Source: an uncultured delta proteobacterium
Lineage (GTDB): Bacteria > Desulfobacterota > Binatia > Binatales > Binataceae
DNA length: 64,000 bases
Direction: 5' to 3'
Assembly (NCBI GenBank): GCA_963815255.1
Contig: CAWFGH010000009.1
Coordinates: forward strand, 63,467-127,466
The notes beneath the pieces are model-generated. The model saw only the letters and a program-made list of their open reading frames with translations. It was not told the origin of the DNA and made no database searches. Each line of letters begins with the position of its first letter. Positions within the stretch are counted from its first letter, which is position 1. This document shows positions 3,375 to 55,516 of the stretch, piece after piece. The position numbers and the translations under genes are program-made.

Positions 3375-3390
3375 CCGAAAAGAGTGGACG

Positions 3391-12473: not shown

Positions 12474-12514
12474 CCCCCTGCTTTTCAGGACCACGACTGG
12501 GAGAAACCATCAAA

Positions 12515-13516: not shown

Positions 13517-13613
13517 CCGGGATGCTTCCCGGTGTGGGCGCCCGCGCTTGCCCCGCGTCGTGCGCGCGGACGCTACTCCGCACGGGGCTCTTGGTGGATG
13601 CGACGGCAGCTTG

Positions 13614-14621: not shown

Positions 14622-15701
14622 AGCCAACCGCGGCTGAAAATTTCTCCGCGGCGGTCGCGCCGGCGCCGAATCATGCGCGCCAGGCGGTGCTGTTCGCGCC
14701 GGGAGATCTGCGCCTTTGCGATTTCACGCCGCCGCGCCCCGGCCCCGGCGAGCTTCTGCTGCGCGTCAAATGCGCGCTCAGTTGCGGCACCGATCTCAAG
14801 ACCTATCGCCGCGGCCATCCGGTGTGGCGTCTGCCCACGCCGTTCGGCCACGAGTTTGCGGGCGTCGTGGCCGAGGTGGGCGAGGGCGTGACCGCGTTCA
14901 AGGTGGGCGACGAGCTGATGGCGGCGCCGACCGCGCCCTGCGGTGCGTGCTTTTATTGCCGGCGCGGACAGGAAAATCTCTGTGCGCAGGCGATGGAAAA
15001 GATGGTGATGGGGGCGTATGCGGATTTTCTGCTGCTGCCGGCTCATGTGGTCGCGCACAACGCCTTTCGCAAGCCCGCCGCGCTGGCTTTCGAAGAGGCC
15101 GCGCTGCTCGAACCGCTTTCCTGCGTCGTCCATGCACAGGAGCTCGCGCGGCCCGAGCCCGCCGAGAGCGTGCTGATAGTCGGCGCAGGCGCCTTTGGCC
15201 TGCTCCACATGCTGGCGCTCCGTGCGGCCGGAGTGCACGAAATCGCGGTCGCCGGTCGCGGCGCGGATCGCCTCGAATGGGCGGGACAGCTCGGCGCCGA
15301 TCGCGTGATCGACATCGCCACGGGCGACCCCGCGGCCGAAGTTGCGCGGCTCAACTGCGGCTTCGGGCCCGACCTGGTGATCGAGTGCACCGGGCAGGTC
15401 GACGGGATGGCGTGACGCGTTCGCGCGTGTGCGGCGCGGCGGCCGGGTGGTGTTCTTCGGCGGATGTCCGGCGGGCACCGCGCTCGAGATCGACACGCGC
15501 CGTATGCACTACGACAATCTCACGTTGATCGCTCCGTTTCATTTTCGTCCGCGCGACGTGCGCCGCGCTTATGAGTTGCTCGCGGATGGCCGCCTCGGCG
15601 CCGGCCGGATCATCAATGCGCATCGCCCGCTCGCGGATATCGCCGAAGTCTTTGAGCTGCTCGAACGTGGCACGGTGTTGAAGTGCGCGGTCATTCCGTG
15701 A
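14618..15701 (+). pseudogene. Zinc-dependent alcohol dehydrogenase (MDR family) with an apparent +1 frameshift near 15405
   Basis: A GTG start overlaps the polyprenyl synthase stop by 4 nt (GTGA). CGTDLKTYRRGHP, GHEFAG and CGACFYCRRGQENLC zinc motifs and GAGAFG are present. The ORF stops at 15415 (..QVDGMA*), and the C-terminal third (WRDAFARVRRGGRVVFFGG...) continues in the +1 frame to 15701. Confidence 0.65.
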
Positions 15702-15788
15702 GCGATGGCCGCGCGAGGTGGGGAGGGTGTTGGGGAGAGTCCGAATCCAGCGCTCCGACCGAATAACCAGCAGGAATCTCGAAATCCT

Positions 15789-17768: not shown

Positions 17769-17784
17769 AGCTCAAGAGGCAGGC

Positions 17785-18972
17785 GTGAAGTCGATCGCAA
17801 TTCTCGGCTCCACGGGCTCGGTCGGCGTCACCACGCTCGACGTGGTGGATCGCTTTCGCGACCGTTTCCGCGTGGTGGCGATGGCGGCGGGGCGCAATCT
17901 CGATCTCTTTGTCAGCCAAATCGAGCGTCATCGCCCTGAACTGGTCTCGGTCGCCACGGCCGAACTGGCGAGCGAACTCAAGCGCCGGCTGGGCTCGTCG
18001 TGCAAGACCGAAATCAAGACCGAGATTCATCACGGAACCGAGGGCGCGGTCGCCACGGCGACTCATCCGGCGGCCGAGATCGTTGTCTCGGCGCTGGTCG
18101 GTGCGCTCGGACTCGGTCCGACTCTCGCAGCTATCGCGGCCGGCAAGGACATCGCGTTCGCCAACAAGGAAGTGCTGGTGATCGCGGGCGAGATGATGAC
18201 CGCCGCGGTGCGCGAGCGCGGCGTGCGCCTGCTCCCCGTCGACAGCGAGCACAACGCGATTTTCCAGTGCCTGGAGGGGCGCGGCCGCGCCTCGCTCAAG
18301 CGCATCATCCTGACCGCGTCGGGCGGTCCGTTTCTTCGGCTCGCGCCCGATCGTTTCGCGTCGATCACCGTGGCCGAGGCGCTCAACCATCCCACCTGGC
18401 GGATGGGCAACAAGATCACGATCGATTCTGCGACCCTGATGAACAAGGGGCTCGAAGTGATCGAAGCGCACTGGCTGTTCGATCTTCCCGCCGAGCGCAT
18501 CGCGGTCGTCATCCATCCGCAAAGCGTCATCCATTCGATGGTCGAAATGATCGACGGCTCGGTGATCGCCGAGATGGCCGAGCCGGACATGGCGATCCCG
18601 GTCGCCTACGCGCTGGCGTTCCCCGACCGCCTGCCGCTCGACCATCTGAAATCGCTCTCACTGGTCGAGCGCGGCAACCTGACTTTCGAAGAGCCGGATC
18701 CGGCGCGCTTTCCGTGCCTGCGGCTTGCGTACCAGGCGCTCGAAGCTGGCGGCACGATGGCGGCCTGCCTCAACGCCGCCAACGAGGAAATGGTCGCGGC
18801 CTTTTTGGGCGGGCGCGCGCGTTTCGCCGACATCCCGCGCCATATCGAGACCGTGATGACGCGGCACAAGAACTGCTCCGCGCGCACCCTGGAGGATTTG
18901 TACGAAGTCGACGGATGGGCGCGCGCCCAGGCTCAAGAGCTGATCGGACACGCACCTGCCGCGAGTCTCTGA
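17785..18972 (+). CDS. dxr: 1-deoxy-D-xylulose-5-phosphate reductoisomerase
   Basis: ILGSTGSVG NADPH motif, the LVGALGL.PTL...GKDIAFANKE region, and the metal-binding segment around RLLPVDSEHNAIFQCL. GTG start. Confidence 0.9.
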   Translation: MKSIAILGSTGSVGVTTLDVVDRFRDRFRVVAMAAGRNLDLFVSQIERHRPELVSVATAELASELKRRLGSSCKTEIKTEIHHGTEGAVATATHPAAEIVVSALVGALGLGPTLAAIAAGKDIAFANKEVLVIAGEMMTAAVRERGVRLLPVDSEHNAIFQCLEGRGRASLKRIILTASGGPFLRLAPDRFASITVAEALNHPTWRMGNKITIDSATLMNKGLEVIEAHWLFDLPAERIAVVIHPQSVIHSMVEMIDGSVIAEMAEPDMAIPVAYALAFPDRLPLDHLKSLSLVERGNLTFEEPDPARFPCLRLAYQALEAGGTMAACLNAANEEMVAAFLGGRARFADIPRHIETVMTRHKNCSARTLEDLYEVDGWARAQAQELIGHAPAASL

Positions 18973-18973
18973 C

Positions 18974-19906
18974 GTGAAGGCCGAGGGCGCCAACAATCCA
19001 GGTTCCGCGTTAGCGGCGGAGGCGCGCGCCGCTGCCGCGCCGCCGCCGGCCCTTGAGGCCGACGCCGCGGCGCTCGCTCAAGCCTACGAGTACTGCGCGC
19101 GTGTGGCGCGCTCGCACTACGAAAATTTCACCGTCGCGTCGTGGCTGATGCCGCGAGCGATGCGCAAGCACGTGCATGCGATCTACGCTTACGCGCGCAT
19201 GGCCGATGACTTTGCCGACGAGGATCGGGACGCCGGCAAGCTCGACCAATGGGAACGCGAACTCGACCTTGCTTACGCCGGTCGGCCGAGCCATCCGGTA
19301 TTCGTCGCGCTGGCCGACACCGTGCGACGTTTCGATATTCCGCGCGAGCCATTCGCCGACCTGCTGCACGCGTTTCGCTCCGATCTCGACTTTCGCGGCT
19401 TTGAGACGCTCGACGATCTGCTCAACTACTCGCGTTACTCGGCCAACCCCGTCGGCCGCCTCGTGCTCTACCTGTTCGGCTATCGCGACGCCGAGCGCCA
19501 GCGTCTCTCCGACCAGGTGTGCAGCGGACTTCAACTCGCCAATTTCTGGCAGGACGTCGGCGTCGATCTCAAAAAGGAGCGCGTCTATCTGCCGCGTCAG
19601 GATATGGCGCGATTCGGCGTGAGCCTCGAAGACCTGCGCGTGCACAATGCGAACTCGAACTTCGTGGAGCTGATGCGGCACGAGGTCGCCAGCGCGCGCA
19701 AATTATTGATGGCGGGTGCGGCGCTCTCCGCGATCGTCGATAAAAGACTCTCGCGCGACATCATGATATTCGCTGGCGGTGGGTTGGCGATCCTGCGTGC
19801 GATCGAGCGGGCGGATTGTGACGTTTTCCATCGCCGCCCTTCGCTCGGCAAACTGGACTACCTGCGCCTGGGATGGCGGGCGCTGCGGGGGCGGCTTGAA
19901 ACCTGA
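18974..19906 (+). CDS. hpnC: Hydroxysqualene synthase HpnC (squalene/phytoene synthase family)
   Basis: HYENFTVAS motif and the Asp-rich motif YAYARMADDFADE of trans-isoprenyl diphosphate synthases head-to-head. Placed between dxr and hpnD. Confidence 0.85.
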   Translation: MKAEGANNPGSALAAEARAAAAPPPALEADAAALAQAYEYCARVARSHYENFTVASWLMPRAMRKHVHAIYAYARMADDFADEDRDAGKLDQWERELDLAYAGRPSHPVFVALADTVRRFDIPREPFADLLHAFRSDLDFRGFETLDDLLNYSRYSANPVGRLVLYLFGYRDAERQRLSDQVCSGLQLANFWQDVGVDLKKERVYLPRQDMARFGVSLEDLRVHNANSNFVELMRHEVASARKLLMAGAALSAIVDKRLSRDIMIFAGGGLAILRAIERADCDVFHRRPSLGKLDYLRLGWRALRGRLET

Positions 19907-20798
19907 GAGCGTCGCGTTTGCGCCGCTGCCTGAAGCTGATGCGGCGCTGCGAAAAGATTACGCACGGTGCGCGTCGATCACGCGCCGCTCCTCGTCCAAC
20001 TTTTACTACGCCTTCATGCTGCTGCCGGCGGAGCGCCGCCACGCGCTGTACTCGGTCTACGCATTTTGCCGCTTCGTCGACGATATCGCCGATGACGACT
20101 CGGTGGGCAAGCCGGTCGAACTGCTCATCCGCTGGCGCGAGGAACTCGAACGCGTGTTCAACGGCTCGCCGACTCATCCGATCTCCCGCGCGCTCGCCCA
20201 CAACGTGCGCCGCTTCGCGATCCCGCGCCGCTACTTCGAGGAGATAATCGACGGCGTCGAGATGGACCTGGAGCGTACTCGGTACGCGACCTTCGAGGAC
20301 CTTCGCCTGTACTGCTACCGCGTTGCCTCGGCGGTCGGTCTCGTGTGTATCGAAATTTTCGGCTATCGCAATCCGCGCACCCGCCAGTACGCAGAAAGTC
20401 TCGGCATCGCATTCCAGCTCACCAACATCATCCGCGACTTGAGCGAAGACGCCGGCCGCGGCCGTATCTATCTGCCGCTTGAGGATCTCGCGCGCTTCGG
20501 CGTGACCGAGGACGAAATCCTGCGCGGCGCCGACACGCTGGAGCTTCGTCGCCTGCTGGAGTACGAGGTCGAGCGAGCACGTTCGTTTTACGCGCAAGCG
20601 GAGCAGGCGCTTGCGGCCGAGGACCGCGCCGCGATGCTGTGTGCGGAAGCGATGCGCTCCATTTATCACGCGCTGCTCGAGCGTATCGCGAGCAAGGGTT
20701 GCGGCGTCGTCGGCCGGCGCTATCGTATTTCCACCCCGCGCAAGCTCTATCTGGTCGGCCGCACATGGGCCGGCACGCGGCTGCGGGCGAGGAACTAG
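19896..20798 (+). CDS. hpnD: Presqualene diphosphate synthase HpnD (squalene/phytoene synthase family)
   Basis: SNFYYAF and FCRFVDDIADD motifs. A probable TTG start overlaps the hpnC 3' end; the start is uncertain by a few codons. Confidence 0.8.
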   Translation: MKPESVAFAPLPEADAALRKDYARCASITRRSSSNFYYAFMLLPAERRHALYSVYAFCRFVDDIADDDSVGKPVELLIRWREELERVFNGSPTHPISRALAHNVRRFAIPRRYFEEIIDGVEMDLERTRYATFEDLRLYCYRVASAVGLVCIEIFGYRNPRTRQYAESLGIAFQLTNIIRDLSEDAGRGRIYLPLEDLARFGVTEDEILRGADTLELRRLLEYEVERARSFYAQAEQALAAEDRAAMLCAEAMRSIYHALLERIASKGCGVVGRRYRISTPRKLYLVGRTWAGTRLRARN

Positions 20799-20804
20799 CC
20801 CGCG

Positions 20805-22181
20805 ATGCTCGATCAGCGCGACGTCGTCGTGATCGGCGGCGGATTCGCCGGGCTGAGCGCCGCAGTTGCGCTCGCCAACCGCGGCTTTCGCGTCGCGGTG
20901 CTCGAACGCAAACCGGCCCTGGGCGGCCGCGCCTATTCGTTCGCCGACACAGAGACCGGTGACTTCGTCGACAACGGCCAGCACGTGCTGATGGGATGCT
21001 ACGCCGAGACGCTCAAGTTCCTCGATCGTATCGGCGCCAGCGGCCAGTTGGTGTTTCATCCTGATCTCGCAATCGAGATGCTCGAACGCGACGGGCGCGC
21101 CGGCGTGCTCAAGACCGCGCATCTGCCGGGCCCTCTCCACATGACCGCCGCGCTGCTGCGCTACCGGCTGCTAACGCCGCGCGAGCGGCTGAGCGCGATG
21201 ATCGCGGGGCTTCGGATGCTGCGGATGCATCGCCGCGACCGCGCGCGCCTGGGCCGGACGACCGTCAAGACGCTGATGGACGTGCTGGGGCAGGGGGAAA
21301 GGGCGCGGCACTGCTTCTGGTATCCGATTGCGATCGCGACGCTCAACGAGGATCCCGAACTTGCCTCGGCGGCTCTGCTGGCCGAAGTGCTAAAGCGCGC
21401 GTTTTTCTCGCGCCGCTCCGATTCCGCTTTTGTCTACGCCAAGGTCGGGCTAAGCGATCTCTACTGTCCCGGTTCCGTGCGGATGATCGAGGCAAGCGGC
21501 GGCCTGGTCGAGACTCGCGCGGTCGTCGAGGTCCTGGAGTTCGGGGGCGAAGGCAAAATCAAGGGCGTGCGCCTGCGCGACGGACGCCGTTTGCAGGCTG
21601 CGAACTTTATTGCCGCGGTTCCGCCCGCCCAGCTTGTGCGACTTCTGCCAGAAGGGGCGGGCGCAGATCCGTTTTTCGCACACCTGGGCGAGATTACTTC
21701 GTCGCCGATTGTCTGCGTCCATGCCTGGTTCGACCGCGAAATCACCGACGCTCCATTTGTCGGCTTCGTCGGCACGACCACGCAATGGCTATTCAACAAG
21801 CGTCGCATATTTGTCGACAACGGCGAGCGCGCCAACGGCTATTTGAGTTTTGTCATCAGCGGCGCGCGCAAGCTGGTCGACGCCGGCAACGAAGAGTTGC
21901 TCGACCTGGTGACCGGCGATTTGAACACGATGATTCCGGCCTCCCGCGACGCGCGCCTGCTCAAGGCCCTGGTGCTCAAGGAGAAGCAGGCCACCATGGC
22001 GCCGTCGCCCGAGTGCGACCGTTTGCGGCCGACTGTGCCGACGCCGATCGCAAACTTTTTTCTTGCCGGCGACTGGATTCAGACCGGCTTGCCGGCAACG
22101 ATCGAGAGCGCCGTTGCGTCGGGGCATGCCGCCGCCGCCGCTATCGCCGCGCGCGTAGGCGAGTCGGTGCCTCCGGCCTGA
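20805..22181 (+). CDS. hpnE: Hydroxysqualene dehydroxylase HpnE (FAD-dependent amine-oxidase/phytoene-desaturase family)
   Basis: N-terminal VVVIGGGFAGLSAAVALANRGFRVAVLE (GxGxxG FAD fold). Placed after hpnC and hpnD. Confidence 0.85.
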   Translation: MLDQRDVVVIGGGFAGLSAAVALANRGFRVAVLERKPALGGRAYSFADTETGDFVDNGQHVLMGCYAETLKFLDRIGASGQLVFHPDLAIEMLERDGRAGVLKTAHLPGPLHMTAALLRYRLLTPRERLSAMIAGLRMLRMHRRDRARLGRTTVKTLMDVLGQGERARHCFWYPIAIATLNEDPELASAALLAEVLKRAFFSRRSDSAFVYAKVGLSDLYCPGSVRMIEASGGLVETRAVVEVLEFGGEGKIKGVRLRDGRRLQAANFIAAVPPAQLVRLLPEGAGADPFFAHLGEITSSPIVCVHAWFDREITDAPFVGFVGTTTQWLFNKRRIFVDNGERANGYLSFVISGARKLVDAGNEELLDLVTGDLNTMIPASRDARLLKALVLKEKQATMAPSPECDRLRPTVPTPIANFFLAGDWIQTGLPATIESAVASGHAAAAAIAARVGESVPPA

Positions 22182-22187
22182 GCGCGT

Positions 22188-23219
22188 ATGGCTTCGCGAA
22201 TCGCACTGGTTACGGGCGCCAACGGCTTCGTAGGATGCTACGTGGTGCGGGCGTTGCTCGCGCGCGGGACCGCGGTGCGCGCGATGGTACGCAAGGGCGC
22301 CGACTTGCGCGCGCTTGAGGGTTTGTCGTGCGAGTATGCGTGGGGCGACCTGCGCGATGTTGCCGCGGTGGAAGAGGCGACGCGCGGATGCGACGAGGTC
22401 TACCACGTCGCTGCGGATTACCGGCTCTGGGTGCTCGATTCGGCGCCGATGTACGCCTCCAACGTCGAGGGGACTCGCAACGTCCTGGCAGCGGCGCATC
22501 GCGCCAAGGTTCGCCGCGTGGTCCACACCAGCACGGTCGGCGCTATCGGCATCCCGCACGGCGAATCCGGGCGCGAGGACTCGCCGGTTTCGCTCGGCGA
22601 CATGGTGGGACCTTACAAGCGATCGAAATTCCTGGCCGAGCAGGAGGCGCTCAAGGCGGCGCGCGAGGGTGTGCCGGTCGTGATCGTCAATCCGTCCACG
22701 CCCGTCGGCCCCAACGACTACAAGCCGACGCCGACCGGACGCATAATCGTCGATTTCTTGAATCGCCGAATGCCGGCCTTCATGGACACCGGGCTCAATC
22801 TGGTCGACGTCGAAGACGCCGCGGCGGGGCATCTGCTCGCCGCCGAGCGCGGCGTGATCGGCGAGAAATATATTCTGGGCGGCGAAAACCTGTCGCTGGA
22901 AGAAATGCTCGGCCGCCTGGCAAAACTGTCCGGCCTGAGCGCGCCCCGGATTCGCGTTCCGTACGCGGTCGCGTGGACGTTCGCGCTCGGCGCCGAGGCG
23001 GTTGCGCGTACGATCACCCGGCGCGCACCGCGCGCGAGCCTGACCGAGGTTCGGATGGCGCGCAAGCGGATGTTCTTCGATTCCTCCAAAGCGCGCGCGG
23101 CGCTGGGATACGCGCCGCGCCCGATCGATGACGCGCTTGCGCGCGCGATCGAGTTCTTTCATTCAATCGGCGCTGTGCAGAGGGCGCCGCACGGGCGTCA
23201 GTTTCGGCGTCCGGCCTGA
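22188..23219 (+). CDS. hpnA: Hopanoid-associated NAD-dependent sugar epimerase/dehydratase HpnA
   Basis: VTGANGFVG Rossmann motif and the YxxxK element (PYKRSK). Confidence 0.8.
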   Translation: MASRIALVTGANGFVGCYVVRALLARGTAVRAMVRKGADLRALEGLSCEYAWGDLRDVAAVEEATRGCDEVYHVAADYRLWVLDSAPMYASNVEGTRNVLAAAHRAKVRRVVHTSTVGAIGIPHGESGREDSPVSLGDMVGPYKRSKFLAEQEALKAAREGVPVVIVNPSTPVGPNDYKPTPTGRIIVDFLNRRMPAFMDTGLNLVDVEDAAAGHLLAAERGVIGEKYILGGENLSLEEMLGRLAKLSGLSAPRIRVPYAVAWTFALGAEAVARTITRRAPRASLTEVRMARKRMFFDSSKARAALGYAPRPIDDALARAIEFFHSIGAVQRAPHGRQFRRPA

Positions 23220-23238
23220 GGTGGAACCGGGGCCGGCG

Positions 23239-24138
23239 ATGCATCTGCTGTTTTCGACAATCGCTCTGCGGCCGTATGTGTTCGTGTTCCTGGGATTCTA
23301 CCTGGCGATCGCGATCGTCAATTTCGGCTTGCGCACGACGGTTCTGTTCACGGTGCTGACGTACGCGGTGGCATGGGCTTGCGAATGGAGCTCGGTGCGC
23401 AACGGCTTTCCGTTCGGGCTCTATCATTACGTCCAGGCGACGCGCGGCCGCGAAATCTGGGTCGCCGGCGTTCCCTTAATGGACTCGCTCTCGTTCACCT
23501 TTCTTTCCTTTGCGAGCTACACGCTCGCGCTGGCGCTGAGCGCGCCGCTTTACCGGCGCGGGTTTGACCTGCGGACGCTCGACACGTGGGAGCTCAGAAG
23601 CTCGCCGCGAGTCTGGCTGATGGCGGCGCTGTTCATGGTGATGATCGACATGGTGGCCGATCCGCTAAGCGTGCTCGGCGAGCGCTGGTTCCTCGGCAAA
23701 GTTTTCTGGTACGACCCGCCGGGGCCGCATTTCGGCGTACCGATCAGCAACTATCTCGGATGGTATTTCGTCGCGGCGGTAGCCGTGGCGATTTTCCAGT
23801 GGCTCGATCGCCGGCTCAATCGCGGCGGCAGCAAGCCGATGGGCGCAGTGCCGGCGGCGCCGTCGCGCGCGCTTTGGGGACCGGGGTTGTACGCCGGAAT
23901 GGTCGGCTTCGCAATCGTGATGCTGTTTCGTATCGGCGCGCGTGAAATCGGCTGGGCGGGAATTTTTATCTTCCTTCCGCTGCTGGCGTTGGCGCTCCAT
24001 ATCATGACGCGCGCCGAGTGCTGGGGCGACGCTGCCGCCGTCGAGCGCCATCTGGCGGACTTTCCCTTCGAGCAAGCGCTTGCGGTGTGGAGCGCGGCCG
24101 CGCCGCGAACGCTCGTCAAACGGCGCGGCGCCGCGTGA
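23239..24138 (+). CDS. Polytopic membrane protein, carotenoid-biosynthesis-associated (PF04240/DUF422-like) family, common in hopanoid clusters
   Basis: 300-aa protein with about 7 TM helices and the conserved region WFLGKVFWYDPPGPHFGVPISNYLGWYF. Confidence 0.55.
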   Translation: MHLLFSTIALRPYVFVFLGFYLAIAIVNFGLRTTVLFTVLTYAVAWACEWSSVRNGFPFGLYHYVQATRGREIWVAGVPLMDSLSFTFLSFASYTLALALSAPLYRRGFDLRTLDTWELRSSPRVWLMAALFMVMIDMVADPLSVLGERWFLGKVFWYDPPGPHFGVPISNYLGWYFVAAVAVAIFQWLDRRLNRGGSKPMGAVPAAPSRALWGPGLYAGMVGFAIVMLFRIGAREIGWAGIFIFLPLLALALHIMTRAECWGDAAAVERHLADFPFEQALAVWSAAAPRTLVKRRGAA

Positions 24139-24150
24139 CGCCGAGCCTGG

Positions 24151-25042
24151 TCAGGTTTCCGGCCGGCTCAGCGCTTCGAGCGCGGCGGCCAGCGCCGCTG
24201 TCGCGCGATTGAGGCTACGCATCATGCGTGCGAGTCCGACGACCGCCGCGGGATTGCGCAGCACGAAGCTCGCGGCCGCGAGCGGCCGCACCTCGCCGTC
24301 CGGCCCCGCCAGTTCCGCGCCCACGATTTCCTCGTCGACGGTGTCGAGTACCGCGCGCACGCACGCGAAGCGCAGGCCGCATCGATGGGCCTCGGCCGCG
24401 ACGGCGGCGCTTTCCATGTCGACCGCGAGCGCGCCGGTTCTGGTCCGGGCGTCGCGCTTGGCGGCGCCGTCTTTGAGAATCCGCGCCGCGGTCAGGATCG
24501 TTCCGGTTGTGAACGAGAGCCGACGCTGTCTCGAGCGCGGCCTGGAAGCGCGCGAGATCGGCGGGCGGAATCGCGATCGTTCTCCGCGCGGACTCGGCAT
24601 CCTCCCCGTCTAGAATGAGGCGGTCGGCGAGCACCAGGTCGCCGGGTCGCAGCTCTTCGCTGAGCGCTCCCGCGAGGCCGGTTGCAATCACGAGGTCTGT
24701 CGAAAGAGTTGGCGATAAATTTGGCGTGAGATTTGGCGACGGACTTGGCGATAGTTTTGGCGATGCAAACGATCGCATCGCGCGGCGCGCCGTATCGGCG
24801 GCCCGGCGTATTCCCAGCCCGGTTGCGATGCCGACGATTTCCGCGGATCCGAGTCGGCCACGAAAACCTCGCAGCCCGTCGATTCCGAGCGCGGTGCGGC
24901 TCTCAAGGCGGCGCTTGAAAGCGGCGGCCTCCCGCGCGAATGCGTAAAAGATCAGGATCACCGGGGTCTCAGCTTGAGCCGCGCCGCGCTTGCTAGCAAA
25001 ATTGCGCCCGTGGGGGCGCGCGTCAATAGGATTGTGCCACAA
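24151..25042 (-). pseudogene. hpnG: Hopanoid-associated phosphorylase HpnG (PNP/MTAN nucleosidase family) with a frameshift and an in-frame 12-bp x4 repeat insertion
   Basis: The N-terminal part (PVILIFYAFAREAA...VGIATGLG...GDLVLADRLILDG) and the C-terminal part (ALAVDMESAAVAAEAHRCGLRFACVRAVLD) are on the same strand but in different frames, with the change at about 24540-24600. A tandem repeat (a)tttggcg(x4), 24700-24760, encodes SPKLSPSPSPNLTPNLSPTLS. Confidence 0.6.
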
Positions 25043-25074
25043 GCGCGGCGGATTGTGCGCGCGCGACCGGGTCG

Positions 25075-25968
25075 ATGACGGAAGCGAAGTCCGTCATCTT
25101 CACCGCCGACGATTTTGGCGCTTCCGCCGAGGTCAACACCGGTATCCTGCGGGCTTATCGCCAGGGCGTGTTGCGCGGGGCGAGCCTGATGGTCGCGGCG
25201 CCGGCGCGCGACGCGGCGGCTGCGGCGGCACGCGAATGTCCCGACCTCGACGTCGGCCTTCATCTCGTCGTGTGCAAGGGACAAAGCGTGTTGCCGCCCG
25301 CGCGGCTGGGCGGGCTGGTCGACAGCGCCGGCCGCTTCGTCGAAAACCCGGTGAAGGGCGGGATGCGCTATTTTTTCAACCGCCGCCTGCGCAGCAGCAT
25401 CGCGGACGAGTGCCGCGCGCAGATCGAGCTCCACCTCAAACTGGTCGGCTATCTCAACCACATCGACGGCCATTTGAATTTCCATGTGCATCCGGTGATC
25501 AACGACATCCTGCTCGACCTGGCCGCGGAATACCGCGTGCCGTGCATCCGGCTGCCACGCGAGCCGGTGTTTACGACGCTCGCGCTCGCGCGCGACAACG
25601 CACCGCGCAAGTTGGTCGAGGCGGTTATTTTTCACGCGCTCTCCAGGCGGGCGCGGCGAAAGATGACCGAGCGCGGAATCAAATCCACCGACTGGCTCTT
25701 CGGGCTCCATCAGAGCGGCAACCTGAGCGAGCGCTATCTGCTCGACGTTATCGCGCGGCTCCGCCCGGGCCTGACCGAGATTTATAGCCATCCCGCGGCC
25801 GATATCGGTGGCACGCCACCGCCCGCGGCGGCGCAGCGCGAAGTCGAAATCCTGACCAGCCCGCTATTGCCGCTCGCGCTTACTCACGCGGGCGCACGCC
25901 TGACGAATTTCGCCGAACTCGCGCGCGCGCTCGATCAACCCCGAGCCCCTTCAGGCGCGCGGGGATAA
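25075..25968 (+). CDS. hpnK: Hopanoid biosynthesis-associated protein HpnK (YdjC/ChbG-like carbohydrate deacetylase)
   Basis: N-terminal VIFTADDFGASAEVNTGIL, with DGHLNFHVHP and the HP..D motif of the YdjC family. Divergent from hpnG. Confidence 0.75.
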   Translation: MTEAKSVIFTADDFGASAEVNTGILRAYRQGVLRGASLMVAAPARDAAAAAARECPDLDVGLHLVVCKGQSVLPPARLGGLVDSAGRFVENPVKGGMRYFFNRRLRSSIADECRAQIELHLKLVGYLNHIDGHLNFHVHPVINDILLDLAAEYRVPCIRLPREPVFTTLALARDNAPRKLVEAVIFHALSRRARRKMTERGIKSTDWLFGLHQSGNLSERYLLDVIARLRPGLTEIYSHPAADIGGTPPPAAAQREVEILTSPLLPLALTHAGARLTNFAELARALDQPRAPSGARG

Positions 25969-30447: not shown

Positions 30448-32280
30448 TCACAAATAGAGTTCGGACAGGTCAGGCTGATCGTCAATGAACAGCACATGGC
30501 CGGAGCTGCCCATCGTATAGCTGGTCAGTGCGGTTCTCGCTGCCGCGAGAGGTCCGGCAAGGGCTGTGAGGTCTCGATGATTCCAGCCGTCACCTGCCCC
30601 TTGGGCCGGGTCGTACCACAACTCGTGCAAATGATCGCTCGTATCCACTAAGAAGACATGGCCGGAGTTGCCGAGTGTGTAGCTGGTCAATGCGGTCCCG
30701 GCGGCCGGCACAAGCTCAGCGGAACGGGTGAGGTCGTTGTGACTCCAATCCGGACCGTCCGCTGGGTCATGCCGCAGTTCGTGCAAATGATTGCTCGTAT
30801 CCATGAAGAAAACATGACCGGAGCTGCCCAGAGTGTAACTGGTCAATGCGGTCCCGATGGCCGGTAGAAGCCTGGTGGAAGCGGTGAGGTCGTTGTGATT
30901 CCAGTCCGGACGCTTAGCCGGATCGTATCGCAGTTCATGCAAGTGGTTACTCGTATCAATGAAGACGACGTGGCCGGAGCCGGCCAGAGTATAGCTAGTC
31001 AATGCGGTCCCGGCGGCTGGCAGAAGCTTGGTCGAGGCGGTGAGGTCGCTGTGATTCCATCCGGGACCCTTAGCCGGATCGTACCGAAACTCGTGCAGGT
31101 GGTTACTCTCATCCACGAAGAAAACATGACCGGAGCTGCCCAGAGTATATCCGGTCAATGCGGTCCCGGCGGCGGGCGCAATCCCGGTGGAGGCCGTGAG
31201 GTCGTTATGATTCCAGTCCGGACCCTGGGCCGGGTCATACCATAGTTCCTGCAGATGGTTGCTCGCGTCCACGAAGAAGACGTGGCCGGAGCTGCCCAGA
31301 GAGTAGCTGGTCAATGCGGTCCCGGCGGCCGGCGAAAGTCCGGTGGGCGAAGTGAGATCGTTGTGATTCCAGCCGGGACCCTGAGTCGGGTCGTACCACA
31401 GTTCGTGCAGATGGTCGTTCGCGTCCACGAAGAAGACGTGACCGGAGCTGTTGAAAGAGTAGCTGGTCGTTGCGCTGTTAGCTCCCGGCCGCGGAGCCCC
31501 GGTAGCTGCAGTCAGGTCGTTATGGTGCCAAACCCCAGCAGCATCGTGCTCTTGCCTGACAAGCTCAAGAAAGAATGGAACAAAGTGAAACGTACCTCGC
31601 TTGGTCTCCGTGAGCGGCTTGCGAAGCGCACGCATGGTCGGACGTCTTCCTTCAGGCAAGGGCCTCAGGCCATCGCCGCTATGGTGATTTGCGACGGGCG
31701 TATATCCATAATTCAGCTCGGCATACCGGCAGGTGAGATAGACCGCGTCGGCGAAGGTATCGTCGAATACGACTATGCCTCCGGGCTTGAGCAATTGGTG
31801 AACGAGGACCAGGTCGACGAACACGTTGTCAAAAAGATGGCTGCCGTCAATGAAAGCGAAATCGAAATTTCGCTTCTGCCGTATGAGTTCGGACAGGAAG
31901 AGCTCAGAGGCCTCTTCTTTGATCTCGACGAATTCCTCGAGGCCGGCGTCCCTGACATTTCTTCGACCCGCACCGTGGTATTCGATAGATTCATAAGGGT
32001 CGATCACGAGATGCGCCCCGATCCCTGCACCATTTTCGAGGAGGGCTTCGAGGATAAAAAGAGTAGATAGCCCCGACGCCATCCCGATCTCCACCGTGCG
32101 GGTAGCGCCTTCTGAAATGCAGATATCCCTGATAAACGCGCCGCGGTCGGGCGTGACGCCATCGGGGAAAATGGGACGTTGGCTTCCGTCCTCTCCGCTT
32201 ACGACGCCACGGCTATAGAGCTCTTCGATGAATCTTCGGAGAAGGGTGGCTTCCTGCTTCTTCGGTTTTGTGGCCATCAA
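30448..32280 (-). CDS. Fusion protein: N-terminal class I SAM-dependent methyltransferase (Methyltransf_24/O-MTase-like) plus C-terminal seven ~47-aa tandem repeats resembling PLL/tectonin-type beta-propeller lectin blades
   Basis: The N-terminus has EIGMASGLSTLFILEAL...FAFIDGSHLFDNVFVDL...LKPGGIVVFDD. The C-terminus has 7 copies of W-N-H-N-D-L-T-x-S-T-x-x-x-P-A-A-G-T-A-L-T-S-Y-T-L-G-S-S-G-H-V-F-F-V-D-x-S-N-H-L-H-E-L-W-Y-D-P-A-x-G-P-D. Confidence 0.7.
   Translation of the reverse strand: MMATKPKKQEATLLRRFIEELYSRGVVSGEDGSQRPIFPDGVTPDRGAFIRDICISEGATRTVEIGMASGLSTLFILEALLENGAGIGAHLVIDPYESIEYHGAGRRNVRDAGLEEFVEIKEEASELFLSELIRQKRNFDFAFIDGSHLFDNVFVDLVLVHQLLKPGGIVVFDDTFADAVYLTCRYAELNYGYTPVANHHSGDGLRPLPEGRRPTMRALRKPLTETKRGTFHFVPFFLELVRQEHDAAGVWHHNDLTAATGAPRPGANSATTSYSFNSSGHVFFVDANDHLHELWYDPTQGPGWNHNDLTSPTGLSPAAGTALTSYSLGSSGHVFFVDASNHLQELWYDPAQGPDWNHNDLTASTGIAPAAGTALTGYTLGSSGHVFFVDESNHLHEFRYDPAKGPGWNHSDLTASTKLLPAAGTALTSYTLAGSGHVVFIDTSNHLHELRYDPAKRPDWNHNDLTASTRLLPAIGTALTSYTLGSSGHVFFMDTSNHLHELRHDPADGPDWSHNDLTRSAELVPAAGTALTSYTLGNSGHVFLVDTSDHLHELWYDPAQGAGDGWNHRDLTALAGPLAAARTALTSYTMGSSGHVLFIDDQPDLSELYL
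30470..31500 (-). repeat. About 141-bp nucleotide-level tandem repeats (about 7 copies, ~80-85% identical) encoding the propeller blades
   Basis: The recurring plus-strand string cagttcgtgcaaatgatcgctcgtatcca(c/t)gaagaa(g/a)acatggccggagctgcccagagt(a/g)tagctggtcaatgcggtcccggcggccgg repeats every ~141 nt. Confidence 0.7.
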
Positions 32281-47579: not shown

Positions 47580-47678
47580 CGGCGAAGCGGCGCGTTTCGG
47601 GTGCGAGACAGCCGTAAGGTCTACATCGCTCGCGCGTCGCCGCCGTGTCAGTCTGGTCTGTGCTAGTCTCGGCCCGGT

Positions 47679-48566
47679 ATGCCGCCGCGGCCGCAATTCC
47701 TGGTCGGCACCGCCTCGTGGACCGATCCGACGCTGGTTAAGTCGGACGTCTTCTATCCGCGCGCACTCAAGACCGCCGAGGATCGTCTGCGCTTTTACGC
47801 CGAGCAATTCAACACGGTTGAGGTTGACGCCACCTATTACGCGCTGGTTTCCGAACGCAACGCCGAGCTATGGGCCGAACGCACGCCGCCCGGCTTCGTT
47901 TTCAACATCAAAGCTTTCGCGATGCTGACCCAGCATCCGGTCGACGCGACCCGGCTGCCGGCCGCGGTGAAGACGATGCTGCCGGTCGATCAGCGCGCGG
48001 CGGCGCGCCTGCGTCATCCGCCGCGCGAGGTGTTGGAGATGGCGTTCGGGATGTTCTGGAGCGCGCTTGAGCCGCTCCGCGCTGCCGGCAAGCTCGGCCA
48101 TCTGCTTTTTCAGTTTCCGCCGTACTTCACCGCGCGCCCCTCCAACCTCGACTATATCGCCGAGCTGAAGCAGCGGATGCCGGGTGCGGCGATCGCGATC
48201 GAGTTTCGCCACAATAGCTGGCTGTTGGGCGCGCAGCGGGCCGAGACGATGCGCTTTCTTGAACGCCACGGACTTACCTTCGTCTCGATCGACACGCCGC
48301 CCGCAACCGTCGAGTCGGTATTCGCGGTCACCGGTTCCGAGGCCTACGTGCGCTTCCATGGCCGCGGCCGCGAGAACTGGTACAAGCGCGATGGCGGCGC
48401 CGCCGAACGTTTCAAGTATCTCTATGCGGAAGCCGAACTGGCACCGTGGGCCGAGCGGTTGAAGTCGCTTACCGGGGTGCGCCGCGCGAGCGTCATCTTC
48501 AATAACTGCTATAGCAATTTCGGCGTGATGAACGCCGCCACGATGGCGCAGATGCTCAAACACTGA
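47679..48566 (+). CDS. DUF72 (YecE-like) family protein
   Basis: FLVGTASWTD...FYP...LRFYAEQFNTVEVDATYY is the conserved DUF72 N-terminus. Confidence 0.7.
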   Translation: MPPRPQFLVGTASWTDPTLVKSDVFYPRALKTAEDRLRFYAEQFNTVEVDATYYALVSERNAELWAERTPPGFVFNIKAFAMLTQHPVDATRLPAAVKTMLPVDQRAAARLRHPPREVLEMAFGMFWSALEPLRAAGKLGHLLFQFPPYFTARPSNLDYIAELKQRMPGAAIAIEFRHNSWLLGAQRAETMRFLERHGLTFVSIDTPPATVESVFAVTGSEAYVRFHGRGRENWYKRDGGAAERFKYLYAEAELAPWAERLKSLTGVRRASVIFNNCYSNFGVMNAATMAQMLKH

Positions 48567-48626
48567 TCGCGCCCGCGCAGGACCGCGGGACAAATTCGAC
48601 GGGACAAACAAACGGGACAATCAAAA

Positions 48627-49325
48627 ATGAAGGCCACGCTCTACCAGTTCGCAACCAGCCCGTTCTGCTCCAAGGTGCGCAAGATTCTCGACTACAAGGG
48701 CCTCGACTACCAGGTCGTCGAGGTCGACTACGTCGAGCGCAAGGAATTGATCGCGGCCTCGGGCCAGATCATGGTCCCGGCACTGAGGCTCGAGCAGGTC
48801 CAGAGCGAGGGCGACGGCGAGAGTAACGAGACAGTCGTCGACTCCGACCGTATCGCGATGCGACTGGAGGAGCTGTGTCCCGAGCCGACGATTCTGCCTG
48901 CGCGGAGCCGCGGCCTGCACCTCGCGCTCACGCGGCATATCGACAGCCAGGTCGAGGAGGCGCTGTTTTTTGCCGCGCTGCCCGACGAAGAGAAATACTT
49001 CGCGCGCCAGGGCGCCGACCGCCTCGCGATGTTTCGCTTCATTCGCGACCGCAAGTACGGCGCGGGATTCTGCGATCGGATGGAGCGCGAGCACGAAGCC
49101 AACATGGTCCGCGTGCGCGAGGTGCTGGAGCCGTTCGAGATGGCGCTCGAGCACGGCGCGTTTTTGCTCGGTGGTCCCGGGCTGGCCGACTTCGCGTTGT
49201 ATGGGCAGTTACATTTCCTCGCGCTGACGGGCGTGCTCAAAATTCCGCACGAGCTGCCGCGACTGCGTGAGTTCTATGGCCGCGTCGATCGCATCACGGC
49301 GTCACTGGAGGATGCAGGGACTTAG
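48627..49325 (+). CDS. Glutathione S-transferase-like protein (thioredoxin-fold N-domain)
   Basis: MKATLYQFATSPFCSKVRKILDYKGLDYQVVEVD is a GST/Grx2-like N-terminal domain. Confidence 0.6.
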   Translation: MKATLYQFATSPFCSKVRKILDYKGLDYQVVEVDYVERKELIAASGQIMVPALRLEQVQSEGDGESNETVVDSDRIAMRLEELCPEPTILPARSRGLHLALTRHIDSQVEEALFFAALPDEEKYFARQGADRLAMFRFIRDRKYGAGFCDRMEREHEANMVRVREVLEPFEMALEHGAFLLGGPGLADFALYGQLHFLALTGVLKIPHELPRLREFYGRVDRITASLEDAGT

Positions 49326-51858: not shown

Positions 51859-52116
51859 TGCCCGCTCCCTTCGAGATGCCCGAGTCTCGCTTTCGTGTTA
51901 GCGGCATTATAGGCATCGTGCGGCGCTTACGGCAAAGCCGCCGCCATCCGCGCAAATTCCGCTCGGGTGGCGCAAAAGGCAGAGGGTGCGCTAGCCTAGA
52001 TTGGAGAACGAATGAGTTGTGCGCGCACTGTGTTTGGATAGCGCGGTTTGTATAACGCGGCCGTTTTGCGAGCGGCGCGCTCCGATGCGCAGCGCGATTC
52101 AGCAAGGAGATTCACG

Positions 52117-53355
52117 ATGGCCAAATCAGAGAACGTTTATATCCTCGGTGGCGCGCAGAGCGACTTCGCCCGCAACTGGAACAAGGAGGGCAAGCATTTT
52201 TCCGCAGTGATGCGCGAGACGGTTAACGCCGGGATGCAACAAGCGCGAATCGAGCCGCGCGAAATCCAGACCGCGCACGTCGGCAACTTTGCCGCCGAAC
52301 TCTACGGCAAGCAGGGCCAGCTCAACGCCTTCTTTCTCGAGGTCGACCCGCATTTCTTCGGTATCCCGACTTCGCGTCATGAGGCCGCCTGCGCCTCTGG
52401 TTCGATCGCCATCCTCGCCGCCTCGGCCGATATCGAAGCCGGCCGTTACGACCTCGCCGCCGTGGTCGGCCTGGAGCAGATGAAGACCGTCGATTCCGCG
52501 ACCGGCGGCGATTTCCTCGGCACCGCGGGATGGTACGAGCGCGAGTGCAAGGGAGTTCCTTATCCCTTCCCGGCGCTGTTTGGGCGCCTGGGCGACGAAT
52601 ACGACAGGCGCTACGGGCTCAAGGACGAATATTTGGCTCGCATCTCGTCGATCAATTTCTCCAACGCCCGGCGCAACCCGCTCGCGCAGACGCGCGGCTG
52701 GCCGCAGGCCGAAAGCGACCCGCAGCAGGCGAAAAAGTTCGACCAGCCAATCGCGGGCCGCATCAAGGTGCGCGATTGCTCGCAGGTGACCGACGGCACG
52801 GCGGTGGTGTTCCTGGCCTCGGAGAAATTCGCCGCTGACTACGCGAAGCGGCGCAACCTGAAACTGGATGACCTTCCGCGCATCCTCGGCTGGGGCCATC
52901 ACACTGCGCCGATCGAATTCGACAAGAAGATTGCCGAAAGCCGCGAGGACACCTACGTGCTCCCGCATACGCGCGAGGCGATTCTCGACGCGTTTCGCCG
53001 TGCCGGCCTCTCAGGCGTCACGCAGGTTTCTGGCATCGAGACCCACGATTGCTTCACAACCTCCGAGTACATGGCGATCGACCACTTCGGCATCACCAAG
53101 CCGGGCGAGTCGTGGAAGGCGATTGAGGAAGGCGCGATCGAGATGGGCGGCAAGATACCGATGAATCCCAGCGGAGGGCTTATCGGCGTCGGACATCCCG
53201 TCGGCGGCACCGGCGTGCGCCAGATGCTCGATTGCTATCGCCAGGTGACCGGAACCGCGGGTGATTACCAGGTCGAGGGCGCCGAGCGCTTTGCGATGCT
53301 CAATATCGGCGGCAGCGGCACGACCAGTTGCGCTTTCGTAGTGGGCAAGCATTAG
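52117..53355 (+). CDS. Thiolase-family protein (SCP-x/lipid-transfer-type thiolase)
   Basis: aaggag RBS. N-terminal VYILGGAQSDFARN and active-site Cys region (SRHEAACASGS); C-terminal GGLIGVGHPVGGTGVR. Confidence 0.8.
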   Translation: MAKSENVYILGGAQSDFARNWNKEGKHFSAVMRETVNAGMQQARIEPREIQTAHVGNFAAELYGKQGQLNAFFLEVDPHFFGIPTSRHEAACASGSIAILAASADIEAGRYDLAAVVGLEQMKTVDSATGGDFLGTAGWYERECKGVPYPFPALFGRLGDEYDRRYGLKDEYLARISSINFSNARRNPLAQTRGWPQAESDPQQAKKFDQPIAGRIKVRDCSQVTDGTAVVFLASEKFAADYAKRRNLKLDDLPRILGWGHHTAPIEFDKKIAESREDTYVLPHTREAILDAFRRAGLSGVTQVSGIETHDCFTTSEYMAIDHFGITKPGESWKAIEEGAIEMGGKIPMNPSGGLIGVGHPVGGTGVRQMLDCYRQVTGTAGDYQVEGAERFAMLNIGGSGTTSCAFVVGKH

Positions 53356-53378: not shown

Positions 53379-54992
53379 ATGGCGGATTCCTTGCCGAGCT
53401 TTTCGCTCATCGATCAGCATCGCCGGGCGCACTCATTTCCCGGCGAGCGGCCCGCGCTGCTGTGCTTCGTCAAGGAGGATTGCCCGACCTGCGACATGAC
53501 GATGCCGCTGATCGAAGCGGTGTCGCAGGCGTTGCGCGATGAAATCGATGTAGTCGTGATGGGCCAAGACGCGGCGGGCAACGCGCTCCTCATCGAGCGG
53601 CACAATCTTACCGCGCCGATGCTCGACGATTCGGATCTGAAAATCTCTTACGCCTACAACGTCGAGATCGTTCCGACGATCGTTCTCGCCGACGCCCGCG
53701 GCGCTGAGTTGCGCCGTTTCGAGGGCTTCGACAAGTCCGACTGGCAAAGCGTGCTTTCCCAGGCGGCGCATCTGGCTGGCGGACCTCAACCGCAAATCGA
53801 CCCGCACATCGATTGGACCGCTTACCCGAAATCGCGTCCCGGATGCGGCTCGAAGTCGGTCGAGCCGGGCGTGGCCGAGCGGCTCGCCGCCGAGGCGTCC
53901 GGCTCGCGCCTGCGCGCCCGTCAGATCGAGCTTGGCGCCGACGAGGACCCGTTCGAATTCATGTTCGAGCGCGGACTGACCGACGGTCTGCCGGTGGTTC
54001 CGCCTACGCCCGAGCGCGTGATGCGAATGCTCGCCGGAACGCGGCGCGATCCGCAGGAAGTGATAGCGAGCGTGCCGCCGAATCTCGCGCCGCTCACGAT
54101 CGAGAAGGTCGCCGCCAACGCCGTGATGGCGGGATGCAGGCCAGAGTACTTGCCGGTGGTGCTCGCGGTGCTCGAAGCGGTCTGTACGGACGAGTTCAAT
54201 ATCCACGGCGTGATGGCGACGACGGCTGGCGCGACGCCGACGATCGTGGTCAACGGTCCAATCCGTCATCGGCTCGCGATGAACATGAAAGTCGGCGCGC
54301 TGGGTTCCGGGAATCGCGCCAACGCGACTATCGGGCGCGCGGTCAAGCTCGCACTACGCAACGTCGGCGGTGCGCGGCCGGGCGAGATCGAACGCACCGC
54401 GCTCGGCGGCCCGGGCAAATACACCGCCTGCTATCCCGAATGGGAGGAGCGGAGCCCGTGGGAGCCTCTGCACGTCGAGCGCGGCTTTCGCCGCGAGGAC
54501 AGCGTGGTGACGGTCTTCGCCCTGGAACCGGGGCCGCGCCTGATCGTCGACCAGCTCTCGCGCACCGCTCATGCGCTAGCAGGCAGCCTCGGAATGGCGC
54601 TCGAGAGCTGCTGGCATCCCAAGCTGCACGGCTACGGCGAAGTCCTGCTCGTCATCTCGCCCGAGCATGCCGATACGATCAAGCGCGACGGCTGGAGCAA
54701 GGCGCAGGTGCGCAATCGAATCCAGGAGGCGAGCGCGCGGCCGATTCGCGAATTGTTGCCCGACGCCAACGCCGGCGAGGGAATGGCGCTTAAGCAGTTC
54801 GGCCTGGCCAACCCTTCCGCGGACCAGCTCGAGCAGCGCATCCCCAAGTTCCGCAAGCCCGAGAATATCAATATCATCGTGGCCGGCGGTGAGGCCGGCA
54901 AGTTTTCGAGCGCGTTTGGCGGATGGTTCAGCGGGCCGATGGGCTCGATAAGCGTGAGCCGTAAGATCGAGGAGGTGCCAAGATCCGAATGA
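53379..54992 (+). CDS. Hypothetical protein with N-terminal thioredoxin-fold CxxC (CPTC) domain and a large uncharacterised C-terminal domain
   Basis: LLCFVKEDCPTCDMTMPLIEAV...VEIVPTIVL matches a TlpA/thioredoxin-like fold. Its stop overlaps the downstream selenoprotein start (ATGA). Confidence 0.55.
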   Translation: MADSLPSFSLIDQHRRAHSFPGERPALLCFVKEDCPTCDMTMPLIEAVSQALRDEIDVVVMGQDAAGNALLIERHNLTAPMLDDSDLKISYAYNVEIVPTIVLADARGAELRRFEGFDKSDWQSVLSQAAHLAGGPQPQIDPHIDWTAYPKSRPGCGSKSVEPGVAERLAAEASGSRLRARQIELGADEDPFEFMFERGLTDGLPVVPPTPERVMRMLAGTRRDPQEVIASVPPNLAPLTIEKVAANAVMAGCRPEYLPVVLAVLEAVCTDEFNIHGVMATTAGATPTIVVNGPIRHRLAMNMKVGALGSGNRANATIGRAVKLALRNVGGARPGEIERTALGGPGKYTACYPEWEERSPWEPLHVERGFRREDSVVTVFALEPGPRLIVDQLSRTAHALAGSLGMALESCWHPKLHGYGEVLLVISPEHADTIKRDGWSKAQVRNRIQEASARPIRELLPDANAGEGMALKQFGLANPSADQLEQRIPKFRKPENINIIVAGGEAGKFSSAFGGWFSGPMGSISVSRKIEEVPRSE

Positions 54993-55516
54993 CCCAAGCG
55001 ACCAAAATTGTCGACCCGACCGACGAGCGCGTGCCGCTCAGCCGCACCCTCGCGTCGCGCCCGCAACATCTAAGCGGCGTGGTGGCGCTGCTCGACATCG
55101 TCAAGCCACGTGGCGACATCCTGCTCGACCGAATCGAGCAGCGGCTCGCTGAGCGCGTGCCCGGCCTTGCGCTCAAGCGGTACCGCAAACCAACGTTCGC
55201 CAAGCCGGCGCCTGATGACTTGCGGCGCAGGATCGCCGCGGAGAGCGACTTCGTTATCGAAGCGCTCGCCGATTGAGGGTCGTGTACAACGTGCAGTGTG
55301 CACGACTCAGTATGGTTTGAAGTGAACGGCAAGCCCTCGGTGGTGGTGGCGTCCTCGACGTTCGTCGATGCGGCTGAGGCGCAGGCGCGCGCGCTCGGAT
55401 TGCCCGACGTGCGCCGCATCTTCGTTCCGCATCCGATCCAGGACGCGACCGACGACGAGATGCGCGCGAAGGCCGATGCGATCGTCGAGCGTCTGATCGA
55501 GGCGCTGACCAGCTAG
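54989..55516 (+). CDS. UGSC-family selenoprotein candidate; the in-frame TGA at 55274-55276 is read as selenocysteine (motif D-U-G-S-C)
   Basis: Two same-frame ORFs (54989-55276 and 55298-55516) are separated only by the TGA. Read-through gives ...FVIEALAD-U-GSCTTCSVHDSVWFEVNGKP.... A hairpin follows 3 nt after the TGA. Confidence 0.55.
55279..55306 (+). promoter_or_regulatory. SECIS-like stem-loop immediately 3' of the in-frame UGA
   Basis: GUCGUGUAC AACGUGCAGU GUGCACGAC: a 9-bp stem (including one G-U pair) with a 10-nt apical loop. Confidence 0.45.

Follow-up and report, generated by a model that had tools for sequence, protein, structure and literature searches.

Since 2007, the UGSC-containing protein has appeared among the selenoproteins of unknown function (PMC1976440), and in the Global Ocean Sampling data it was among the most abundant selenoprotein families, with 255 selenocysteine (Sec) forms versus 21 cysteine (Cys) forms (PMC2398784). 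It was grouped there with the redox selenoproteins, a thioredoxin fold was suggested, and a 'UGSC/Unknown_1' fusion was mentioned in one line (PMC2398784). The family has been included in recent reviews (PMC9312934, PMC13188914), and its function is given as unknown (PMC1976440, PMC13188914). Methanogenesis marker protein 7/McrC (PDB 8s7v, chains H and I) is also named among the known systems closest to UGSC. We analyzed a 64,000-nucleotide stretch of the genome of an uncultured bacterium of the class Binatia (contig CAWFGH010000009.1; hereafter, the window), in which two open reading frames (ORFs) separated by an in-frame TGA at 55274-55276 form, with high confidence, a single UGSC-family selenoprotein gene at 54989-55516. 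Compared with the described family (NF041046/PF24696; for example, Hyphomonas neptunium ABI76733.1), the gene showed no essential difference, having the same U-G-S-C motif, the same Sec/Cys column and a similar size of about 175 residues. It is a typical, already catalogued member, and the finding of the gene itself is already known. A literature search combining Binatia and selenocysteine found nothing relevant. The conserved signature of its selenocysteine insertion sequence (SECIS), the partner gene with its fusions, the flavodoxin-like fold and the genomic islands containing sel genes, described below, may go beyond the published accounts.

The gene, its hairpin and the upstream partner gene all lie on the forward strand. 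The frame begins with ATG at 54989, reaches the TGA at 55274-55276 and is open from there to the TAG at 55514-55516. Reading the TGA as Sec gives 175 codons including Sec96, and the product contains ...FVIEALAD-U-GSCTTCSVHDSVWFEVNGK..., in which the U in the context ...EALAD-U-GSCTTCSVHD... belongs to a U-G-S-C-T-T-C motif. The read-through product, scored with U replaced by C, reached 162.3 bits against NF041046, "UGSC family (seleno)protein" (equivalog cut-off of 125 bits; profile positions 4-147 of 147), and 166.6 bits against Pfam PF24696, "UGSC" (cut-off of 25 bits; profile positions 2-171 of 172). Neither alignment was interrupted at the UGA.

A search of 5.8 billion proteins identified 239 relatives, most of which were fragments of about 96-103 residues. 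These fragments stopped exactly at ...EALAD and are gene calls truncated at the TGA. Full-length Cys-form homologues (P0003, P0025, P0026, P0030, P0031, P0034, P0038 and P0084) showed C-G-S-C at the aligned column, and were single contiguous chains with the aligned context ALAD-C-GSC. Other full-length matches had W or G at the Sec column (P0002, P0001 and P0007), which probably came from gene callers using genetic code 4 or 25. At the DNA level, more than 600 encoding stretches were found when each GTDB species was represented by one genome, and the related-locus counts given here refer to the best 80 of them ranked by tblastn; being the closest relatives by this ranking, the 80 loci are not independent samples. 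They came from at least six bacterial phyla and belonged to Candidatus Binatia (the closest, with 77% identity), Chloroflexota (Dehalococcoidia and Tepidiformaceae), Gamma- and Alphaproteobacteria, Acidobacteriota and Myxococcota, and TGA was present at the Sec codon in all 80. Pairwise ratios of nonsynonymous to synonymous substitution rates (dN/dS) between the window and 13 relatives were 0.12-0.27 over the 70 codons after the UGA and 0.09-0.42 over the 60 codons before it, and the former values indicated that the downstream part is translated in the same frame. The sequence-only reading had proposed read-through of the TGA into a U-G-S-C motif, membership in the UGSC family and CGSC in the Cys homologues, and all three proposals agreed with the results. 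Homologues that truly end at the TGA, a contrary outcome that it had named, were not seen. The fragments 54989-55276 and 55298-55516 should be merged into one coding sequence with Sec at codon 96, and most metagenomic gene calls for the family are likewise truncated at ...EALAD.

If the TGA were a true stop, the locus would encode a 95-residue protein and a separate 72-residue protein starting from GTG at 55298, or would be a pseudogene of a Cys-form gene. This would agree with the splitting of the locus by gene callers, with the predominance of fragments of about 100 residues ending in ...EALAD among the database matches, and with the window showing no Sec machinery. We considered it highly improbable, since a TGA kept in every locus across phyla is not a sporadic nonsense mutation, strong purifying selection acts in frame on both sides of it, and both hidden Markov models (HMMs) require both halves. 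The proposed GTG start is moreover a conserved Val codon within the SECIS, the Cys forms are contiguous proteins, and sel genes and tRNA-Sec adjoin the operon in several genomes. Were the organism to use another genetic code or near-cognate suppression and decode the TGA as Trp or Gly, the W and G residues in the three database entries mentioned above would be explained, but this appeared more improbable still. Among the ordinary stops in the window TGA was the most frequent, terminating 31 of 52 ORFs with high G+C content at third codon positions (GC3), including the full-length, HMM-verified shc, dxr, hpnE, hpnA, pepN and waaF. As genes with HMM matches reaching to their ends terminate there, this genome has not reassigned TGA. 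Two further points argue against Trp or Gly: homologues have the redox Cys of a CxxC motif in the aligned column, and a dedicated conserved hairpin lies 3' of the TGA.

Other ORF pairs joined in the same frame by a TGA (15381/15702, 20799/22182, 47667/48567 and 59287/61288) were also considered as selenoprotein candidates and rejected as merely adjacent genes. The pair at 47667-49325 consists of a DUF72 gene and a glutathione S-transferase (GST)/glutaredoxin-like gene split only by the TGA at 48564-48566. The DUF72 HMM match was complete and the GST match started at residue 24, and the pair was therefore judged to be two adjacent genes and not a selenoprotein gene. A survey of about 50 ORFs in the window with NCBIfam and Pfam found no second selenoprotein.

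The region 3' of the UGA was compared among 81 sequences. The RNAalifold consensus was a 6-bp hairpin, CGUGCA-GUN-UGCAYG, paired in all 81, which in the window corresponds to 55290-55304 (5' arm CGUGCA at 55290-55295, loop GUG at 55296-55298 and 3' arm UGCACG at 55299-55304). It starts 13 nt past the UGA, with 19 nt from the UGA to the loop and an apex of A-GUG-U. One pair of the hairpin varied, being GC in 48 sequences, GU in 31 and AU in two, and the two AU cases (L010 and L070) were double, compensatory changes. Codons +1 to +4 varied freely, with four codons for Gly, six for Ser, TGT (42) or TGC (39) for Cys and four for Thr, and served as an internal control within the same sequences. Codons +5 to +8 were synonymously frozen (Thr ACG in 79/81, Cys TGC in 81/81, Ser AGT in 81/81 and Val GTG in 42/42). 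The hairpin is enclosed in a conserved 17-nt motif, ACRUGCAGUNUGCAYGA (55289-55305), which occurred once, at +13, in every Sec-form locus, including L086, a locus found independently via the partner protein. The motif was not present in the three distinct Cys-form genes examined. In the window TGAGGNNNNTGYACNACRTGCAGTNTGCAYGA occurred only once, with 0 occurrences expected by chance, and this invariant signature can serve to locate UGSC genes and to call them correctly.

The consensus of bacterial SECIS elements includes a loop of 3-9 nt with a G in the first two loop positions, a distance of 16-37 nt from the UGA to the loop, and the apex pattern N1-G-U-N-N2 (PMC13188914). The hairpin at 55290-55304 fits this consensus with borderline energy. 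It shares with the bSECISearch model, whose prototype is Escherichia coli fdhF, a position inside the coding sequence just 3' of the UGA, a 6-bp upper stem, a small apical loop with G-U and a spacing (19 nt) within the 16-37 range. The minimal element of E. coli fdhF has an apex closed by GCA/UGC, with GU contacts located about 11 nt past the UGA. The window hairpin differs from the model in having no bulged U and in its energy at the limit, and was unusually invariant, with 17 nt fixed across phyla. A scan of the window with Rfam at gathering thresholds gave no match, and no SECIS family covers the element.

Several points weigh against this assignment. The core hairpin alone had -7.4 kcal/mol, borderline at the consensus limit of -7.5 (-19.2 with flanks). 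Most core pairs are invariant, and the structural covariation is limited to one pair because the others never vary; the frozen codons could in principle reflect a constraint on the sequence and not on the structure. The local fold was unexceptional on its own, with a z-score of -1.65 versus shuffles (71 nt), and what exceeds chance expectation is the comparative evidence, namely the TGA in 80/80 loci, the unique motif and the conserved shorter hairpin. The core hairpin could also compete with a different pairing that shares its 3' arm, and this was the SECIS chosen in the sequence-only reading. In that pairing (55279-55306), GUCGUGUAC (55279-55287) pairs with GUGCACGAC (55298-55306) in a 9-bp stem that includes a single G.U pair and closes a 10-nt loop. 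The stem and loop were present as described and were the more stable local fold in the window (-13.0 kcal/mol, with a minimum free energy of -19.2 for the extended region), and the stem could largely form in Binatia-type (Val-GUG) sequences with one A.C mismatch. Its description as a typical SECIS did not hold, as it was broken in most lineages and failed the consensus. Overall pairing was 78% among the 81 sequences, but three of the nine pairs (15-42, 18-39 and 23-34) were paired in only 38%, 16% and 56%, and no measure rose above shuffles. The 5' arm lies in codons showing free synonymous variation without compensation, and three of four bacterial SECIS criteria were violated, as the loop has 10 nt and begins with AA without an early G, and the spacing is 11 nt. 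The stem is explained by the palindromic nature of GUGCAC, one half of which is similar to the Cys-Thr codons UGY-ACN. It is thus very unlikely that the 9-bp stem is the functional SECIS here with the shorter hairpin only as its sub-structure, although the stem may be a competing or lineage-specific extension of the core hairpin. A lower stem (alignment columns 18-24 with 45-51) was not adopted, as it was only 73% paired, mainly in gammaproteobacterial sequences.

With the hairpin at 55290-55304 taken as the SECIS, SelB.GTP.Sec-tRNA(Sec) would bind it downstream of the UGA, as is standard in bacteria, and Sec would be delivered once the UGA occupies the A site. SelB/SECIS-driven insertion of Sec96 is well supported. 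Genes for selA, selB and selD were not found in the 64 kb by the HMM survey of about 50 ORFs and tblastn, and tRNA-Sec was not detected (no tRNA by ARAGORN and nothing by Rfam). As a result, we infer Sec insertion in this particular organism from conservation. The machinery not being seen in 64 kb says little about the whole genome.

Evidence for Sec decoding was obtained from the related loci. In L068 and L070 (Alphaproteobacteria), L071 (Phenylobacterium) and L075 (Candidatus Sulfopaludibacter, Acidobacteriota), tRNA-Sec was detected by both ARAGORN and Rfam (RF01852) directly upstream of the partner-UGSC operon. The ORFs flanking tRNA-Sec in these four loci were selA, selB and selD, whose scores all exceeded the curated cut-offs of TIGR00474, TIGR00475 and TIGR00476. 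The islands extend over L068:1-6520, L070:790-6520, L071:819-6520 and L075:589-6520, and the last has the order selA (589-2277), selB (2028-4145), tRNA-Sec (4190-4283), partner (4324-5937) and UGSC (6001-6516). The operon is also adjoined by selA in L013 (9330-10646) and L079 (557-1885). This linkage provides strong, though circumstantial, evidence that the UGSC family uses Sec decoding. As the operon is packaged with selA, selB, selD and tRNA-Sec in one island, the arrangement suggests that the Sec-decoding trait may be kept there, and perhaps transferred, mainly to serve the partner-UGSC system, and such islands provide a handle on UGSC function. For genomes with these compact selenium islands, one may ask whether UGSC is the principal or even the sole selenoprotein. 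Downstream of UGSC in another locus (L031:4297-4393), ARAGORN reported a 97-nt 'tRNA-Val (aac)', which was probably a false positive because no Rfam tRNA reached the gathering score there.

The gene directly upstream of UGSC in the window (53379-54992; ATG at 53379, alternative TTG at 53328), encoding 537 residues, was also found directly upstream in 70 of the 80 loci. The UGSC start ATG at 54989 overlaps the partner stop TGA at 54990-54992 in an ATGA (54989-54992). Among the 72 loci for which the junction was compared, a 4-nt overlap was found in 17 and a junction within 4 nt (an overlap or a gap of at most 4 nt) in 31. The translational coupling with the upstream CxxC gene, proposed from the overlap in the window alone, is supported by this recurrence. 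A Shine-Dalgarno-like GAGGAGG (54969-54975), located 13 nt 5' of the UGSC ATG, lies in the last codons of the partner (..IEEV..), and in most related loci the UGSC start follows a ATCGAGGAGG tail, in which the ..IEE.. codons of the partner also serve as the Shine-Dalgarno sequence. The partner also precedes Cys-form UGSC genes, at 36-40% identity and again with a 4-nt overlap, and stand-alone genes for its C-terminal domain, referred to below as the orphan domain, are likewise followed by UGSC genes. In L086, the gene call of the source record itself gave a 174-residue product across the in-frame TGA.

Rosetta-stone fusions joining UGSC to the orphan domain were found in both orders, UGSC-orphan in P0345 (561 residues) and P0302 (556 residues), and orphan-UGSC in P0336 (619 residues). 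P0336 ends in ...ALAD and is therefore truncated at the Sec codon. Its long low-complexity Ala/Ser linkers look eukaryotic, possibly algal. A literature search on the linkage found nothing beyond the one-line remark on a 'UGSC/Unknown_1' fusion (PMC2398784), with which the fusions found here are consistent. For a selenoprotein family that ranks among the most abundant in the environment and has been left without an assigned function since about 2007, a near-obligate partner with fusions is a concrete handle on function and the most useful lead obtained here.

The partner consists of two domains. The N-terminal one (53379-53783) is thioredoxin-like (TlpA/ResA-like), with a CPTC motif at 53481-53492 (Cys35 and Cys38). 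It scored just below the Pfam thresholds (Redoxin, 26.3 versus 26.6; AhpC-TSA, 25.2 versus 26.0), matched PDB entry 2l5o at E = 3e-8 along with ResA structures in a profile search, and was modeled by AlphaFold2 (AF2) with a predicted local distance difference test (pLDDT) score of about 90 at residues 10-130. The domain shares the thioredoxin fold, the CPTC motif and the profile matches to ResA/thioredoxin-like structures with the TlpA/ResA thiol-disulfide oxidoreductases. Those proteins are extracytoplasmic and single-domain, whereas the partner domain has neither signal nor anchor and is fused to the orphan domain. The public annotation as a plain 'TlpA family/redoxin' protein is a mislabel, and the name covers only a quarter of the protein.

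The orphan domain (53940-54971), about 340 residues long, contains the motifs GLTDGLPVVPPT, NAVMAGC253RPEY and GNRANATIGRA, together with C351. It had no NCBIfam match, no Pfam match even at E<=10, and no sequence relative in PDB when searched with a 43-sequence profile, and its pLDDT in the AF2 model was below 50. A search of 1.84 billion representatives (clusters at 50% identity) at E<=1e-3 gave 5,489 cluster representatives, among which were many stand-alone proteins of about 350 residues and some tandem duplications of about 710-740 residues. The whole partner had more than 7,900 close homologues of 529-540 residues. The conserved cysteines of the partner were C35 and C38 (CPTC), C156 (PGCGS), C253 (AGCRPEY) and C351, and the CxxC was kept in 64-66 of 70 partners.

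The structural model suggested that UGSC is a flavodoxin-like protein of five beta/alpha units and not thioredoxin-like. The beta-alpha-beta-alpha-beta-beta-alpha arrangement of thioredoxin with its CxxC, which the fold proposed earlier (PMC2398784) would imply, was not found in the model. Sec96 was placed where strand 3 ends and Cys99 in the opening turn of helix 3, a predicted geometry consistent with a redox-active UxxC couple shuttling between selenol/thiol and selenenylsulfide. A PDB profile search with UGSC gave nothing meaningful.

The selenoproteins of glycine and D-proline reductases, which are recycled by thioredoxin, offer an analogy. In those enzymes (GrdA, CxxU; GrdB/PrdB, UxxC(xxC)) a small or dedicated U/C selenoprotein works with a substrate-specific partner and a thioredoxin-type reductant, and the UxxCxxC of UGSC with its partner may work in a similar way. 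The likeness is one of operation and not of membership, as UGSC has neither a sequence relationship nor such a fold match to Grd/Prd, and its hosts are mostly lineages of soil and sea with an aerobic or facultative way of life. Kinship to GrdB/PrdB through UxxCxxC was rejected, being without sequence or fold support. The Pfam models of GRDB and GrdA did not match. UGSC was the sole Pfam match for the selenoprotein, and the C-terminal domain of the partner had none even at E<=10.

A redox relay formed by UGSC and its partner was considered the probable meaning of the pairing. UGSC would be co-translated with the partner through the ATGA overlap, and in the partner the cytoplasmic thioredoxin-like CPTC domain is fused to the widespread domain of about 340 residues with its invariant Cys (AGCRPEY). 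The orphan domain could act as the substrate-handling component and UGSC as its dedicated selenol/thiol redox subunit, and the fused thioredoxin-like domain would recycle the U96-C99 selenenylsulfide. The analysis shows the family membership, the conserved UGA and SECIS, purifying selection on both sides of the UGA, the linkage by operon and fusion, and the modeled fold, and we infer which way and between which partners electrons flow, and the kind of substrate. Beyond the relay, we tentatively propose that UGSC and the orphan domain may be two subunits of a widespread selenoenzyme or its Cys-dependent equivalent.

UGSC might instead be a general stand-alone thiol/selenol oxidoreductase, an antioxidant in the manner of thioredoxin or glutaredoxin, next to which the partner lies without mechanistic meaning. 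Its grouping with redox selenoproteins (PMC2398784) is consistent with this idea, and so are nine Chloroflexota loci in which UGSC has no adjacent partner; the one remaining locus was too short to judge. These nine loci also count against the relay, as do two features of the modeling, namely that the UGSC fold was modeled for a Cys homologue of 55% identity, from an alignment of 12 sequences, and that a catalytic role of the orphan domain is a guess because its pLDDT is below 50. Adjacency without meaning nevertheless appeared unlikely, since different phyla keep the pair, Sec and Cys forms share it at 36-40% identity, stop and start codons frequently overlap, and the fusions occur in both orders.

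The genes recurrently neighboring the pair were those for acyl-CoA dehydrogenase (23 loci), short-chain dehydrogenase/reductase (13), family III CoA-transferase (13), major facilitator superfamily transporter (11) and RraA-like protein (8). Near the Cys forms, tripartite ATP-independent periplasmic (TRAP) or ATP-binding cassette (ABC) transporters and enoyl-CoA hydratase/MaoC were found. A thiolase-family gene (PRK06289-type, 616 bits) adjoins the pair in the window (52048-53355) and in other Binatia (L008, L012 and L015), and a thiolase gene (L086:6092-7306) lies beside the stand-alone orphan-domain/UGSC pair, together with a DUF35/OB_ChsH2_C gene. These neighbors are a weak hint of organic-acid or acyl-CoA metabolism, in which the pair may process such an acid or acyl-CoA by a reductive or thiol-dependent route.

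Upstream of the pair in a Chloroflexi locus (L011:1-2646), a single stop-to-stop ORF consists of a DUF3179 segment followed by acyl-CoA dehydrogenase. DUF3179 itself is a listed selenoprotein family, and the ORF may be either a further gene interrupted by TGA or just two genes that share a frame.

Elsewhere in the window, a complete-looking hopanoid cluster was found at 12341-25968, containing hpnH, farnesyl-diphosphate synthase, squalene-hopene cyclase, dxr, hpnC, hpnD, hpnE, hpnA and hpnK, together with a gene for a carotenoid-synthesis-like membrane protein. An ORF of 610 residues on the reverse strand (30448-32280) encodes about eight tandem repeats of about 45 residues in its C-terminal two-thirds, with the pattern ..GSSGHVFFVD.SNHLHELWYDPAQGP.WNHNDLTA.TG..PAAGTALTSY.. 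This ORF may have been horizontally acquired, because it lies in a stretch which, unlike its surroundings, has no high-GC3 ORF.

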